Source: Solobacterium sp. UBA1761 (GTDB lineage Bacteria; Bacillota_I; Bacilli_A; Erysipelotrichales; Erysipelotrichaceae). Taken from it: a stretch of DNA of 64,000 nucleotides. Below are positions 31,588 to 36,902 of the stretch, piece after piece. The stretch is taken from positions 17,116 through 81,115 of the forward strand of contig DCHD01000002.1 of assembly GCA_002315565.1 (NCBI GenBank). The letters run 5' to 3'. The translations under genes and the position numbers were made by a program. Positions within the stretch are counted from its first letter, which is position 1, and each line of letters begins with the position of its first letter. The notes below the pieces were generated by a model. That model searched no databases. It was given only the letters and a program-made list of their open reading frames with translations, and was not told where the DNA came from.

Positions 31588-31593
31588 TTAAAT

Positions 31594-31621
31594 AACCATC
31601 GTCTTAACGATGGTTTTATTT
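31594..31621 (+). terminator. Intrinsic terminator after the TSCPD gene; insulates the SipW-type operon
   Basis: AACCATCG-TCTTAA-CGATGGTT followed by TTATTT. Confidence 0.8.
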
Positions 31622-31694
31622 ACATTGTATTTTTGTGTTTGTATAATTAACTTGATACGTTATGTATTCTTTTTAATATGGAAAGGGGAACTAT

Positions 31695-32228
31695 ATGAAA
31701 AAAAGAAGTACTAAACTGATATTTGGTTTATTTGCACTAGTTGTATGTCTTGCTGTAGGCTTTGCTACTGTAAGTTCAGTTACACCAACTGCAACCGGTA
31801 GTGCCGCAATGAAAGACAGCAACCTTAATGTTGTTTTTGATGGAACACCTGTTTGTTCAGATACAACAAATGACTCTGCATCAATTGACTCAACTGATAA
31901 ACTGAAAGCTACATTCTCAGTTACAAACCTTGCAGCTGTAGGTGACACAAGAACTGTAACTTATACAGTAAAAAACAATGAGGTAGACCTTGCTGCAAAG
32001 ATTTATGTAGCAACTGCTGCCACTGATATTACAAATACTAAATCTGATTATTTTGAAGTAACTACAGATTGCACAGGAAGTTCTAATGCCAAGACTATTG
32101 CAAAGAATGGTGCAACTACAACTGTTGTTATTACTGTAAAACTTATTAAGGTTCCAACCGCTTCAGCTGACAGTTCTTCTACGATTACTGTTAAATTTAC
32201 TGCTGATCCAACACAGCCAACTGACTAA
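31695..32228 (+). CDS. Small secreted beta-rich protein with a SipW-cognate-like signal peptide (TasA/camelysin-like candidate subunit)
   Basis: SD AAGGGG. N-terminus is MKKRSTK plus a hydrophobic core ending VGFATVSSV. The mature part is Thr/Val/Ser-rich with alternating beta-strand patterns (TVTYTVKNN, TTTVVITVKLIKV, STITVKFTA). First gene of a 4-gene operon. Confidence 0.6.
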   Translation: MKKRSTKLIFGLFALVVCLAVGFATVSSVTPTATGSAAMKDSNLNVVFDGTPVCSDTTNDSASIDSTDKLKATFSVTNLAAVGDTRTVTYTVKNNEVDLAAKIYVATAATDITNTKSDYFEVTTDCTGSSNAKTIAKNGATTTVVITVKLIKVPTASADSSSTITVKFTADPTQPTD

Positions 32229-32234
32229 TCAATT

Positions 32235-33374
32235 ATGAAATCTGATAAGTTTAAAATCTATATACTTGAAGTTGTATTTGATTTTATGCTTATTTTGATG
32301 CTGTTTTATGACAAGCTTTCAAAACCTTTAGTCTGTACTGCGGTTTCTTTATTTGCTTTATTTGTATATTTTGTACAAGGGAAAAATACAGTAAAAATAA
32401 ATGGCAAAAACATTATTGTGTTTATGCTGATAGCGGGAATGATGTATCTTTGTGGATATTATCTTCTTGGATTGTATTTTGGCTTTATAAACAATAAACA
32501 GCTTCTGGTTTCTAATATAGTTACTGATTATGTGATTCCTGTAACATTGCTGATAACAGCAGGGGAATATATCAGAAGTGTATTTATTAGAAGCAATACA
32601 GAAATACGTATAAGATCATATAAAATTGATCTTTCAAACCTTCTTGTAAGTATTGGACTGATTGTTCTAGATTTTCTTATATACAATGGTATTTATGATT
32701 TAAGCAGTTTTTCGAATTTTATGACACTTGTTGGATATGTCGGATTTGCATCTTTTGCAAACAATATGTTATTCAACTACCTGTCAGAAAGATTTGATGT
32801 TAAAGGAATTATTGTATATCGACTTATCACTGTACTCTACATTTTTATCATCCCCGTAATTCCTGATGTAAGTACATATCTTAAGTCAGTACTGAGAATT
32901 ATTTATCCTTACATACTTTATCTGTTTATTGAAAAGGTCTATCCTTCAAAAACTGATAATGTTGGATACGTTTCAAAGAAAGTATCTAATGTGTTGAATG
33001 TTATTGTTATTATTCTTACCATTCTGGTTGGAATGCTTATATCCTGTAAATTCAGATATCGAATGCTGATTATAGGAACTGACAGTATGACTGGCACCAT
33101 CAATGCTGGCGATGCTGTTATCTATAAAGAATTCAAAGATGAAAGTCTGAGTGTTAATGGCGTTATAGTCTTTGATTATAATGGCATTAAAACTATTCAC
33201 CGTATTACTGATGCAAGAAAAGTAAACGGTGAAATAAGATACCTTACAAAAGGTGATGCCAACAGCAAGATTGATAACGGCTATCGTACAAGTGATGATG
33301 TTGAAGGTATTGTAAAACTAAGAATCAAATACATCGGTTATCCGACACTGTGGTTAAGATCGATGTTTGACTAA
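32235..33374 (+). CDS. SipW/ER-type (S26B) signal peptidase I fused to a ~250-aa N-terminal polytopic membrane domain
   Basis: C-terminal ~110 aa carry GTDSMTGT (catalytic Ser box), TIHRITD (His box) and TKGDANSKID (GDxN box). They are preceded by about 6-7 predicted TM helices with no His residue. Confidence 0.75.
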   Translation: MKSDKFKIYILEVVFDFMLILMLFYDKLSKPLVCTAVSLFALFVYFVQGKNTVKINGKNIIVFMLIAGMMYLCGYYLLGLYFGFINNKQLLVSNIVTDYVIPVTLLITAGEYIRSVFIRSNTEIRIRSYKIDLSNLLVSIGLIVLDFLIYNGIYDLSSFSNFMTLVGYVGFASFANNMLFNYLSERFDVKGIIVYRLITVLYIFIIPVIPDVSTYLKSVLRIIYPYILYLFIEKVYPSKTDNVGYVSKKVSNVLNVIVIILTILVGMLISCKFRYRMLIIGTDSMTGTINAGDAVIYKEFKDESLSVNGVIVFDYNGIKTIHRITDARKVNGEIRYLTKGDANSKIDNGYRTSDDVEGIVKLRIKYIGYPTLWLRSMFD

Positions 33375-33377
33375 AAA

Positions 33378-34430
33378 ATGAAGAAAGAACATGTAAACGA
33401 AAAACTTAAAAACATTGTTCTGCAGATTGTATTGATCTGTGTTTTAGTCGTGCTGTTTGTTCTTTCTCTAATTTTCTATAACAAGCTCAATCAGAACCGA
33501 TATGTCTGTTTCAATGAGTCCAGCAATATCTCTTATGATGTAAAACTTAAAGATAATCCTTTCCTTGATGAAACAAAGATTATCAGTTCTGAACAGGAAT
33601 ATCTTGATACACTCATTGAAAAGATAAACAGCACATTCAACTACTCTTTAAAGCTTGATCAGGAAGATCTTAATCTTGAATATGTTTATTATATTGATGC
33701 CAACATTGAAGTAAAAAACAGAAACAGCAGCAAATACCTTTACCGTTATTCTGAATATTTGTTGAATGAAACGGAAAAGAAAGCTGTAAATGAAGGCATA
33801 AACATATCAGAAGCAACTGTAATTGACTATAACCGTTATAACAGTAAAATAAAAGAATTTGTTAATGCATATGGGCTTGACAGTGCCGATGCGCTTCTTA
33901 CAGTTTCGCTCCATGTTGTATTACTTGACAACAACTGTCAGCTTGTTGAATGCAATCAGGATGAATCAATAGTTTCTCTTGAGATTCCTCTGACTGAAAA
34001 AACTGTAAATATTGATATTGTTGACAATCTTGTTAATTCATCTACGCGTTTCCAATTGTGTGAAGAAAACAGAATTCTAAAGAATGTTCTTTTGGTTTTT
34101 ACCGTGATTGATGTATTGGCACTAGTTATTGCTGTATACAGATTTATTGCATTAAATATCGCTTCAAAATCTGCACAGGAAAAATACAGAAGAGAACTTG
34201 GCCGAATTGTAAGCAATTATGCATCATATATTCAGGAGATTGAAGAAGAGATTGATATCAGCAGATATGAAAGCTGGAAAATCAAGAACTTCGAAGATCT
34301 TATTGAAATATCTGAAAGAATCAATCAGCCAATTCTTAAAGTAGAGAATATTGAACTTATGTATACCAATTTTGTTGTGCCTGTAAGTGACAGCAGAATA
34401 TATGTTTATAGAATAGAAGTTGAAGAATAA
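33378..34430 (+). CDS. Two-TM membrane protein of unknown function (possibly DUF5305-like)
   Basis: TM1 IVLQIVLICVLVVLFVLSLIFY, a ~200-aa extracytoplasmic segment, TM2 VLLVFTVIDVLALVIAVYRFIAL, and a ~90-aa charged C-terminal tail. The gap to each neighbouring gene is only 3-4 nt. Confidence 0.5.
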   Translation: MKKEHVNEKLKNIVLQIVLICVLVVLFVLSLIFYNKLNQNRYVCFNESSNISYDVKLKDNPFLDETKIISSEQEYLDTLIEKINSTFNYSLKLDQEDLNLEYVYYIDANIEVKNRNSSKYLYRYSEYLLNETEKKAVNEGINISEATVIDYNRYNSKIKEFVNAYGLDSADALLTVSLHVVLLDNNCQLVECNQDESIVSLEIPLTEKTVNIDIVDNLVNSSTRFQLCEENRILKNVLLVFTVIDVLALVIAVYRFIALNIASKSAQEKYRRELGRIVSNYASYIQEIEEEIDISRYESWKIKNFEDLIEISERINQPILKVENIELMYTNFVVPVSDSRIYVYRIEVEE

Positions 34431-34434
34431 CATT

Positions 34435-36864
34435 ATGAAAGAAAAGTTTAAAGGATTTAAAACCGGAAATCTTGCGATAACTTTTCTTTTTATTTTATTC
34501 TTTGCTTTTTTACAGATAGGTTATGCGAAAGTTGATTCAGTAAATCTGAATGTTGAAGGAACTACAGAGGCAATTGTTCCTGATTCAGTATTTATTTCAG
34601 ATATTGTTCCTTCAGATAATTCGTTTGCTATTATAGAAAATTATGACAAGACTGTATTTTCTGGATCAGTTATTCTTTCAGATTCTGATTTAAATTCTTC
34701 GCAGTCATTTGATATTACAATTACCAATAATTCTATCAGTTCTCAGTTCTTTAAAGAAATCAAATATCAAAGTGGTGCAGATACCTACAGCAATGAAGAC
34801 ATCGTATTCAGTCTTGATTCAAGGATGTATGACGGCTATGAATTGGCATCTGGTTCTAGCGTAACATTTAATTTGTCATTTAATTATTCTGATTCATTTA
34901 AAAGTGAACATCAGATAAATCCGATTACAGAAAGTGATATCAGACTTAAATTTGTTCTGAACTTTTACTTCAGCAGAATAATTTCATTTAATCTCAATAA
35001 TGGTGAAGGAACTGCACCTGCATCATATGAAATATCCTGTGATGCAGATCTCAATGAAATAACAGGTACTGCTCCAACAAGAACAGGATATACTTTCCAG
35101 GGATTCTATGACAGCAGTGATTATACCTCAGGACAAAAGTTCTACGATAGCCAGCTTAATGCCTCGGATATTTCAAATCTTACAATCAATCAACATGAAA
35201 CTGTTCTGTATGCTGGATGGAAACCAATTGAATATACAATTACTTATCACAGTGGTATTCTTCCTGAAGGTTATACACAGGTTACATATATTTCCAGTGG
35301 ATCAAGTCAGTATATAGATACTGGAATTAAAGGAAACAACAGTAATCTAAGTTTTGAAATCGAGTACGAATGGAACAGTTTCCCAAACGGATACAGTACT
35401 GTTTTTGGCGCATATCAAAGCGAAAATCACGTGTGCACCAGATTCTGCCAGTATCAGAATTCTATTACCTATTTCAATATAAACAGTATGGCAGGAGGTT
35501 CAACTCCATTAAATAAAACAAGGGCAATAAATACCAGATATACTGAAACATTAAAACCTAAAGGTACAAATCAGTTTACTATGACATCTGGTGGACAGAG
35601 TTCAACCGGTACAAGAACAACCGCAACCGATATAAACAATAATATATTCCTTTTCAGTTGCAGTTCCAGTGGTACTTTTTCAAATATTAAAGTATATTAT
35701 TTTGTTATATACGATAATGGCACTCCTGTAAGAAACTTCATTCCTTGTAAAAATGCAAGTGGTGTACCTGGAATGTATGATACAGTTGAAGGTAAATTCT
35801 ATGCCAGTGGTAATGGTACTTTTAATGCCGGAGCTGATGTATCAGATACTTCGATTCAGACACTTATTTATGACGTTAAAGATGAAGTATATGAAAACAG
35901 TTTTACACTTACTGGATTCAGTTTTGTAGATTGGACTTATGACAATGGAATATCAGTAACGGATTATGATGAGAAAGAAGAAGTGATCAATCTTTCATCG
36001 GTTTCTGATTCTAATTTGGATTTCTACGCAAAATGGAACAGGCAGGTAAGAATATATTTCTCAGACCTAAAGCGAACGGTTGATACTACTGAAGCAGATA
36101 TTTCAGAAATTACAGATATTATTCCTTCTAATGATTATCTGACTTTCGGTGGCTGGTATGACAGTAAGAGCGTTAAATATTTTGATGAGAATGGCGTTTA
36201 TACAAATGAGTCTATCAAAACACATTATCTGAATCTTGTAGGAAAATTCTATTTCAATGATGATGCATTTGAAAATGACTACTATTCACTTGCCTATATT
36301 CAGACAAACGGATCACAGTATGTAAATACAGGTGTCCCTGGAAACAATAACAATCTAGGATTTGAAATCGAATATGAATGGGTTTCCTTCCCAAGTGCTT
36401 ATGGTGCGCTTTTCGGATCGTATGTTGATGAAAATACAGTTTCAACCAGAATAATAATGTATAGAAACGAAAGAACATTCTTCAACATCAACTCAAAAGC
36501 AGGTGGTTCAAGTAAATATGAGGCTGCTACAAGACAATTAAATACGGTTTATGTTGATACACTTTTGCCAAGCGGCAACGATTTTGCTTATACTACAAAC
36601 TCTGTTACAACAAATGGAACAAGAACAACTGCAAACAATTCAAGTGTTCCAATTTACATTTTTGCCAACGGCAATGGAACAGGGGCAACCGTTTCTATAA
36701 AACTCTATTATTTACGTATTTATGATGGTGATAATCTGATCAGATTCTATATTCCATGTAAACGTAAATCAGATAATAAAATCGGACTATTCGACGCGGT
36801 TAATGGAACATTCAATGTATCGGTGACAAATTCTAACTTTACTGCAGGACCTCAGACTAATTAG
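34435..36864 (+). CDS. Large secreted repeat protein: SipW-like signal, N-terminal beta domain, Listeria-Bacteroides (Flg_new)-type repeats and two copies of a ~190-aa module
   Basis: Signal region ends LQIGYAKVDSV. GYTFQGFYD...YAGWKP and FGGWYD repeat signatures. The duplicated module spans 35272-35832 and 36280-36849. No LPxTG motif. Start set at ATG 34435; the track's TTG 34420 overlaps the upstream gene. Confidence 0.7.
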   Translation: MKEKFKGFKTGNLAITFLFILFFAFLQIGYAKVDSVNLNVEGTTEAIVPDSVFISDIVPSDNSFAIIENYDKTVFSGSVILSDSDLNSSQSFDITITNNSISSQFFKEIKYQSGADTYSNEDIVFSLDSRMYDGYELASGSSVTFNLSFNYSDSFKSEHQINPITESDIRLKFVLNFYFSRIISFNLNNGEGTAPASYEISCDADLNEITGTAPTRTGYTFQGFYDSSDYTSGQKFYDSQLNASDISNLTINQHETVLYAGWKPIEYTITYHSGILPEGYTQVTYISSGSSQYIDTGIKGNNSNLSFEIEYEWNSFPNGYSTVFGAYQSENHVCTRFCQYQNSITYFNINSMAGGSTPLNKTRAINTRYTETLKPKGTNQFTMTSGGQSSTGTRTTATDINNNIFLFSCSSSGTFSNIKVYYFVIYDNGTPVRNFIPCKNASGVPGMYDTVEGKFYASGNGTFNAGADVSDTSIQTLIYDVKDEVYENSFTLTGFSFVDWTYDNGISVTDYDEKEEVINLSSVSDSNLDFYAKWNRQVRIYFSDLKRTVDTTEADISEITDIIPSNDYLTFGGWYDSKSVKYFDENGVYTNESIKTHYLNLVGKFYFNDDAFENDYYSLAYIQTNGSQYVNTGVPGNNNNLGFEIEYEWVSFPSAYGALFGSYVDENTVSTRIIMYRNERTFFNINSKAGGSSKYEAATRQLNTVYVDTLLPSGNDFAYTTNSVTTNGTRTTANNSSVPIYIFANGNGTGATVSIKLYYLRIYDGDNLIRFYIPCKRKSDNKIGLFDAVNGTFNVSVTNSNFTAGPQTN
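35272..35832 (+). repeat. Copy 1 of the ~190-aa duplicated module in the large secreted protein
   Basis: YTQVTYISSGSSQYIDTG...FEIEYEW.SFP...FFNINS.AGGS...GTRTTA...IKVYY..IYD...IPCK...GMYD.V.GKF...FNAG. Confidence 0.85.
36280..36849 (+). repeat. Copy 2 of the ~190-aa duplicated module
   Basis: YYSLAYIQTNGSQYVNTG...FEIEYEWVSFP...FFNINSKAGGS...GTRTTA...IKLYYLRIYD...IPCK...GLFDAVNGTF...FTAG. Offset from copy 1 is 1008 nt. Confidence 0.85.
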
Positions 36865-36902
36865 GCTTACTCATTAGAAGTAAAATTCTGTCGTTTTGTT
36901 TG

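Follow-up and report, generated by a model that had tools for sequence, protein, structure and literature searches.

Why would a bacterial signal peptidase carry a second, polytopic membrane domain in the same chain? In textbooks, the signal peptidases of bacteria are enzymes of a single chain held by one or two membrane helices, and a catalytic subunit set within a membrane complex of many helices is known only from eukaryotes. The question is raised by a gene of Solobacterium sp. UBA1761 (GCA_002315565.1; a 1.63 Mb genome in 59 contigs), which lies in a 64,000-nucleotide (nt) stretch of contig DCHD01000002.1, hereafter the window. An earlier note on this DNA had described the product as an endoplasmic reticulum (ER)-type signal peptidase I fused to a large membrane domain. 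Here, we find that the fusion is genuine and evolutionarily fixed. The best overall explanation, which we hold at a probability of roughly 55%, is that the protein serves as the dedicated peptidase of a gene cassette, with its N-terminal domain (N-domain) docking or gating a special signal peptide together with a DUF5305 protein.

The gene is an intact open reading frame (ORF) of 379 residues and a stop codon, without internal stop. Its peptidase half comprises the following features, helix 9 being taken from an AlphaFold2 (AF2) model.

32235..33374, + strand: long signal peptidase ORF, 379 residues plus stop codon
32967..33044, + strand: helix 9, residues 245-270, predicted in-to-out signal anchor of the peptidase domain, with a conserved S-C-x-F motif at its end
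33045..33371, + strand: predicted extracytoplasmic S26B catalytic domain, placed by TIGR02228, by PDB sequence and Foldseek matches, and by conserved catalytic residues
33084-33086, 33198-33200, 33255-33257 and 33273-33275, + strand: codons of the catalytic residues Ser284, His322, Asp341 and Asp347

To judge from sequence, the segment of residues 248-372 is a signal peptidase I of the ER/archaeal type (MEROPS S26B) with a full catalytic set, its activity being predicted. This segment matches TIGR02228 at 58.5 bits in a profile search, above the cut-off of 51.85 (54.9 bits in an in-genome search). Human SEC11C and SEC11A are the best PDB sequence matches of the catalytic part, and Foldseek matched it to SEC11A/C and SipA. 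The ER-type assignment made earlier is thus upheld, although the equivalog model for SipW itself, NF046067, gives the long peptidase 37.5 bits where 190 are required. All catalytic boxes are in place: Ser284-Met285, Gly292-Asp293, His322-Arg323, Gly340-Asp341-x-Asn343 and Asp347. The nucleophile Ser284 sits in the S-M box, in the segment LIIGTDSMTGT that begins at residue 278, and the general base is His322 of the H-R box, not Lys. Conservation was counted in an alignment of 90 diverse relatives, where Ser284, His322 and Asp347 occur in all 90 and Asp341 in 89.

The catalytic domain (residues 271-379) is predicted by the model to lie outside the membrane, held there by helix 9. The anchor named previously, VLNVIVIILTILVGMLISC, corresponds to residues 253-271 and falls within the modeled helix at 245-270. 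At the end of this helix, Ser270 is present in 88/90 relatives and Phe273 in 84/90. A 10-residue amphipathic helix (369-378) closes the model, in addition to nine predicted membrane helices.

Could the long ORF be an artefact in which two adjacent genes were joined by an assembly or sequencing frameshift? The earlier note had itself allowed that the N-terminal region might be a separate upstream gene. Against this stands a single ORF of 370-385 residues that recurs in hundreds to thousands of independent assemblies. We recovered 389 relatives at E ≤ 1e-3 among clusters at 90% identity, nearly all of 378-385 residues. A search with the N-domain only, against 1.84 billion representatives, returned 319 clusters at 50% identity, in which the full-length members are almost all 369-390 residues long, and a query from the Clostridia branch added over 2,129 more, with lengths of about 373-375 residues. 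The relatives derive from metagenome-assembled genomes (MAGs) of human, rumen and other animal guts, labelled Bacilli, Erysipelotrichaceae, Mollicutes/Tenericutes, Clostridia and the like. In a sample of 401 genomes of the phylum, only 7 have the N-domain, and none of these shares the genus or family of the present genome. Two of the sampled genomes (G327 and G405) each carry two N-domain copies on different contigs, which suggests several cassettes per cell in some lineages.

Two metagenome contigs do show the N-domain and the peptidase as separate ORFs, as the artefact reading would have it. In both, the break (L107:1960-1995 and L108:2845-2890) is a one-base shift in a poly-A run (A6 and A10) of the Lys-rich linker, past which the peptidase continues in another frame, whereas the window ORF contains no run of six or more A or T. 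The shift could be a sequencing error, or it could be slipped-strand switching that turns the peptidase on and off. We found no stand-alone N-domain genes beside short SipW genes; the short matches are contig-end fragments, and two are poly-A frameshifts. Likewise, the two short SipW genes of this genome have no N-domain-like neighbor in the stretch read. The chance that the long form is an artefact is, on this evidence, practically negligible, and the rare split forms are frameshifted versions of one gene and not a separate upstream gene.

The earlier note had also raised the prospect of a common architecture that was already characterised. Common it is, with thousands of examples, and a preprint of January 2026 on Pyrodictium AbpX has noticed it (Sleutel et al., 10.64898/2026.01.04.697558); it is not characterised. 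According to that preprint, the dedicated signal peptidase I of bacterial and archaeal AbpX loci spans the membrane with ten helices; the extra helices receive one sentence there, with no fold, conserved residues or role described for them. The window protein is a divergent example of this recently noticed kind. Our literature searches on CPBP with signal peptidase and TasA, or on SipW with polytopic, returned nothing beyond it.

What, then, is the added domain? Its main features are as follows.

32235..32939, + strand: N-domain, residues 1-235, eight transmembrane helices with both ends cytoplasmic, as predicted by AF2 models and the Lys+Arg count
32565..32576, + strand: Glu111-x-x-Arg114, within the cytoplasmic half of helix 4; no other N-domain feature is as conserved in the alignment of relatives; codons checked
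32940..32966, + strand: predicted cytoplasmic linker, residues 236-244, Lys-rich in relatives, with poly-A frameshifts in some metagenome contigs

AF2 places the N-domain helices at 3-24, 30-48, 57-82, 95-119, 133-150, 159-186, 189-205 and 214-235, with a predicted local distance difference test (pLDDT) score of 80.5 and a predicted template modeling (pTM) score of 0.70 for the full-length model, and 80.7 and 0.80 for a domain-only model. The count thus rises from the roughly six helices proposed earlier to eight, in addition to helix 9 as the peptidase anchor. Predicted cytoplasmic loops hold 13 Lys+Arg compared with 3 in the outer loops (family means 14.4 and 3.7), a positive-inside distribution that agrees with an inside N-terminus, nine spans and an outside peptidase domain. 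The statement that the protein lacks any His holds for residues 1-245 but not for the whole chain, whose one His is the catalytic His322; across the 90 relatives, no N-domain column shows a conserved His.

With a median identity to the query of 25% compared with 41%, the N-domain diverges faster than the peptidase domain. A small set of residues is nevertheless held under strong selection. Glu111 is present in 90/90 relatives, Arg114 in 88/90, Asp/Glu146 in 86/90, Asn177 in 77/90, Arg/Lys196 in 88/90 and Pro225 in 87/90, while position 181 is variable (N37, H22, T10 and Q7 of 90). The AF2-based prediction locates Glu111/Arg114 and Asn177/Arg196 in the inner-leaflet half of the bundle.

As far as its sequence can tell, the N-domain with its eight membrane helices belongs to no described family. 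Searches of Pfam and NCBIfam found no match, and Pfam remained without one even at E ≤ 10 for the window protein and 21 family members. The PDB sequence profile search returned chance matches alone (E above 1). By structure, the sole PDB entry to exceed a template modeling (TM) score of 0.4 in Foldseek is the CAAX protease Rce1 (4CAD), one of the CPBP proteases; all others score 0.30 or lower, and exosortase, rhomboid, transporter and GPCR (G protein-coupled receptor)-like folds, considered as candidates, were discarded as none was prominent. The full-length model matches Rce1 with E 0.05, probability 0.98 and a TM of 0.49 on the target, and the domain-only model with E 0.27, probability 0.82 and TM 0.44/0.43. 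Because this match is weak but unique, we put an Rce1-like fold for the modeled N-domain at about even odds. In BFVD, the best N-domain match is a 261-residue viral protein, probably from a phage metagenome (A0A8S5VUJ7; TM 0.50/0.48, probability 0.98). This protein carries no name and is hence uninformative for the identity of the N-domain, although knowing what it is could help to name the fold.

Membership in the CPBP family is a separate matter. The PF02517 (CPBP) profile does not match the window protein. In place of motif 1, EExxxR, the family has [ST]-E111-x-x-R114, with a single Glu and a spacing one residue shorter; as a control, 21 of 22 CPBP proteins from relatives show the canonical EE...R. 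Motifs 2 and 3 (FxxxH and HxxxN/D) are likewise absent, and Asp/Glu146 and Asn177-x-x-x-Asn/His181 stand in the corresponding regions. With the profile match, the EE pair and the two His all missing, the N-domain is not a CPBP family member, so the absence of CPBP motifs noted from the sequence stands, though the nearest solved fold is a CPBP protease. An hhalign comparison of the N-domain profile with the 22 CPBP proteins gave a global P of 2.5e-4, compared with 0.05-0.5 for reversed decoys, and aligned E111/R114, D146 and N177xxxN181 collinearly with the three CPBP motifs. We discarded this alignment as evidence of homology, given that the unrelated CdsA reaches P 1.1e-4 to 2e-3 in some settings. 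Single CPBP sequences, too, scored no better than 31 other polytopic proteins encoded in the genome (Mann-Whitney p 0.6-0.8).

These residues underlie the main rival to a docking role, in which the N-domain would be an active, histidine-free intramembrane hydrolase and the protein a two-protease machine. Glu111 and Asp/Glu146 would do the chemistry and Asn177 with Asn/His181 would form an oxyanion hole; the enzyme would remove, or cleave a second time, the signal peptide that stays in the membrane once the outer cut is made, or it would trim the signal anchor. The conservation of Glu111, Arg114, Asp/Glu146 and Asn177 speaks for it, as does their spacing of 35 and 31 residues, which falls within the range of the CPBP motifs in the 22 relatives' proteins (29-37 and 25-53), and the nearest fold is that of a glutamate-dependent intramembrane protease. 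Yet both CPBP-defining histidines are missing family-wide, and no CPBP member is known to work without the two of them. CPBP homology is also unproven at the sequence level, and position 181 varies. We consider the hydrolase rather improbable, but the invariant buried Glu makes it hard to dismiss.

A different answer follows if the resemblance to Rce1 is set aside. The N-domain could then be a new eight-helix fold, unrelated to CPBP, that acts as a conduit or anchor, for example by exporting or holding a growing fibre, binding a lipid or cation, or tethering the fibre base to the membrane. This would fit the lack of any Pfam, NCBIfam or PDB sequence match, an hhalign CPBP signal that is indistinguishable from decoys, and a TM to Rce1 below 0.5; membrane-embedded Glu111, Arg114 and Arg196 would suit ion or head-group binding. 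On the other hand, Rce1 is the one clear PDB outlier in two separate models, and eight helices with cytoplasmic ends match Rce1 (4CAD). Moreover, an additional translocon would be unnecessary, as the signal peptides of the two presumed substrates described below are of the ordinary Sec type. We regard the conduit or anchor as unlikely. The earlier suggestion of a physically coupled second membrane function survives in part: a module is fused to the peptidase and conserved, and its function may be docking, translocation or anchoring.

The genomic setting offers a further handle on function. The long peptidase is the second of four genes, ordered P1, long peptidase, DUF5305 and P4, with intergenic gaps of 3-6 nt or overlapping genes; the DUF5305 gene starts 4 nt past the peptidase stop.

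31594..31615, + strand: terminator-like hairpin after the TSCPD gene, at the left edge of the insert
31619..31647, + strand: promoter-like site TTTACA-17-TATAAT upstream of the cassette, 11/12 consensus matches, a consensus match only
31695..32228, + strand: P1, 177-residue secreted protein and presumed substrate, whose signal peptide ends ...AVGFA and is followed by a beta-strand-like segment
33378..34430, + strand: DUF5305 protein, 350 residues, bitopic, proposed accessory subunit (PF17231, 33.5 bits against a cut-off of 29)
34420..36864, + strand: P4, 814-residue surface protein and presumed second substrate, with signal end QIGYA and a Listeria-Bacteroides repeat

The 5.3-kb cassette (31588-36899) lies precisely at the junction of a TSCPD-domain gene with lspA (signal peptidase II)-rluD. 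In a same-genus and a same-family genome (G163 and G003), the TSCPD gene directly adjoins lspA-rluD, 41-45 nt apart, which identifies the cassette as an insertion. Its GC fraction is 0.328, compared with 0.351 for the window. The order P1-peptidase-DUF5305 is kept in about 40 loci from species-representative genomes and in two long metagenome contigs (L040 and L042), where domain calls confirmed PF17231. The same cassette order occurs in a Clostridia (Eubacteriales) MAG (L095), whose fourth gene again has the same signal end. Alongside P1, peptidase and DUF5305, the surface protein is the variable member. Directly upstream of P1, the Clostridia MAG has a gene with a response-regulator-like N-terminus (L095:1945-2748); the window cassette has no regulator.

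Public records label the long peptidase simply "signal peptidase I", and on that label it might be taken for a general housekeeping enzyme with coincidental neighbors. This is highly improbable. A LepB-type signal peptidase is encoded elsewhere in the genome (contig C20, 123.7 bits), the long peptidase is not found in the same-genus and same-family genomes, and it is always accompanied by P1 and DUF5305. The genome also encodes two short SipW-type peptidases on contig C51 (loci L005 and L006), with open frames of 183 and 201 residues, the second being a 199-residue ORF. Given LepB and the two short SipW genes, the long form is an extra, specialised enzyme, and we conclude that it is very probably the dedicated peptidase of its cassette.

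L005:1405-2004 and L005:809-1348, - strand: short SipW-type pair, peptidase and adjoining 179-residue secreted protein

In the secreted 179-residue protein beside the 199-residue SipW, the signal ends GTFAKYT, ...AVSGTFAKYTSS, a cognate class unlike the G-[FY]-A-x-V of the cassette. The genome may thus run three parallel peptidase/substrate pairs.

P1 orthologues, of 162-204 residues (most 162-183), immediately precede the long peptidase in about 40 loci and share the motif LG[VI]GYA followed by an alternating A-[VI]-S-x-[VI]-x-L-x-[IV]-x-G. In the window, the signal ends are AVGFA|TVSSV in P1 and QIGYA|KVDSVNLNVEG in P4, and the Clostridia equivalent of P4 carries CIGYAALSDSLGIKGSA. Both signal peptides are of the ordinary Sec type, and the two proteins share this short N-terminal motif and nothing more. 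By analogy with known fibre systems, there is moderate support for cleavage of P1 and P4 by the peptidase past the shared G-[FY]-A. The P4 N-terminus (34420-34470) is nearer to the family consensus LGVGYA|AVSSVNLDITG than is the P1 N-terminus (31695-31800), AVGFA|TVSSVTPTATGS, and P1 has a Pro within the presumed strand.

The precursor of AbpX has the signal end IGLTYA|QWSETLSLSATI, with the residues past the cut serving as donor strand in the fibre (10.64898/2026.01.04.697558). When the P1 profile was compared with AbpX, the signal end and the following strand aligned (GLTYA|QWSE, P 0.005), and nothing further. The body of P1 has no PDB match, Pfam gives weak Ig/Fn3-like matches only, and its homologues are all "hypothetical", so P1 was rejected as a TasA/AbpX homologue by sequence. 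We infer a fibre role for P1 by analogy, and the cassette probably builds a surface fibre or adhesin.

We therefore return to the reading of the long protein as a dedicated cassette peptidase with a docking or gating N-domain, and propose how it might work. The peptidase would cleave P1 and P4 after G-[FY]-A, in P1 presumably after Ala24, and cleavage would expose an N-terminal beta-strand, as in donor-strand fibres of the AbpX/TasA type. The histidine-less N-domain bundle, with Rce1 as its nearest fold, would not itself be a protease and would serve as an intramembrane docking or gating platform. That it is non-catalytic and plays such a part we rate slightly below an even bet. Glu111/Arg114 and Asn177/Arg196 could grip the signal peptide by its Lys-rich start and hydrophobic core, or the same residues could be the contact for both DUF5305 helices. 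In each case, the cleavage site would be brought before Ser284/His322 on the outer surface. The bundle and the DUF5305 helices would then confer specificity and perhaps couple cleavage to assembly, a role akin to that played in the eukaryotic signal peptidase complex by its non-catalytic subunits.

Several points weigh against this proposal. An invariant Glu within the membrane, accompanied by a conserved Asp/Glu and Asn, fits a catalytic or ion-binding site better than a passive scaffold. The resemblance to Rce1 is weak, its root-mean-square deviation being about 7 Å at the E values given above, and the CPBP profile alignment, supportive when set against reversed decoys, failed the stricter controls with CdsA and the 31 polytopic proteins. 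P1 has no sequence similarity to TasA/AbpX beyond the signal end and following strand, and every step of the mechanism is drawn from sequence and prediction.

A bolder version can be put forward, though we think it unlikely. The N-domain, far from a passive addition, and DUF5305 would turn an S26B peptidase into a prokaryotic multi-part machine that reads a single special class of signal peptide, ...LG[VI]G[YF]A. The membrane cluster of Glu111/Arg114, Asp/Glu146 and Asn177 would then be either a histidine-free catalytic site that disposes of the signal anchor or a switch linking cleavage to the polymerisation of the fibre by donor strands.

Peptidases with eight conserved extra helices, a fixed partner and a particular secreted neighbor are present in thousands of uncultured bacteria of gut and rumen. 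Should the extra domain select or gate the substrate, the long peptidase would be a simple system in which to learn, in bacteria, how signal peptides are read by peptidase complexes, and it would also reveal how fibre assembly is linked to cleavage. The cassette may help abundant, uncultured Bacilli of the gut to form biofilms or to adhere.

How does this arrangement compare with known systems? Among the closest is the polytopic peptidase of the AbpX loci, such as the Pyrodictium abyssi enzyme WP_338249487.1, which is also of the TIGR02228 type, has many extra helices, lies beside a small secreted subunit and DUF5305, and occurs in Bacillota and archaea. The preprint regards DUF5305 as a putative accessory subunit and likens it to the non-catalytic subunits of the eukaryotic complex (10.64898/2026.01.04.697558). 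The AbpX subunit has a signal end, G-x-x-Y-A, and a next strand that resemble those of P1, although P1 is not detectably AbpX-like past its N-terminus. The peptidases differ in having ten helices there and nine plus a C-terminal amphipathic helix here, a comparison made by description only.

Haloarcula hispanica TafD is a dedicated S26 peptidase that is needed for processing of a fibre subunit and has a DUF5305 partner (PMC11821415). The TafD/TafG Tat-fimbriae thus share with the cassette the pairing of a dedicated S26 peptidase with DUF5305 (PMC11821415). TafD differs in having four helices, a second outside domain and Tat-pathway substrates, and in being archaeal.

Bacillus subtilis SipW, encoded in tapA-sipW-tasA, is an ER/archaeal-type Ser/His peptidase in an operon with its own fibre substrates, as proposed for the long peptidase. 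Signal peptides of SipW substrates end in G-aromatic-A. With about 190 residues and one or two membrane helices, SipW is nonetheless a different enzyme; the long peptidase, which scores far below the equivalog cut-off, is no orthologue, has eight helices added and lacks the C-terminal membrane helix.

Streptococcus pyogenes SipA (4N31) shares the S26 fold (Foldseek E 1e-3) and a part in fibre assembly. SipA lacks the catalytic residues and acts as a chaperone, whereas the long peptidase keeps all of its catalytic residues. Rce1 and the CPBP family (PF02517, 4CAD) resemble the N-domain in a Glu-x-x-Arg on helix 4 and in polar residues similarly spaced on the next two helices; Rce1 has eight helices, both ends in the cytoplasm and its catalytic Glu on helix 4. 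The N-domain departs from them with one Glu instead of EE, the loss of both catalytic His and the lack of a Pfam match.

In the eukaryotic signal peptidase complex (SEC11A/C with SPCS1-3; 7P2P and 7P2Q), which provides the best catalytic-domain match, the catalytic subunit works with non-catalytic membrane subunits. No homology to SPCS1-3 was seen. The extra helices of the eukaryotic complex belong to separate proteins of one or two helices each, whereas in the long peptidase eight are fused with the catalytic domain in one chain.

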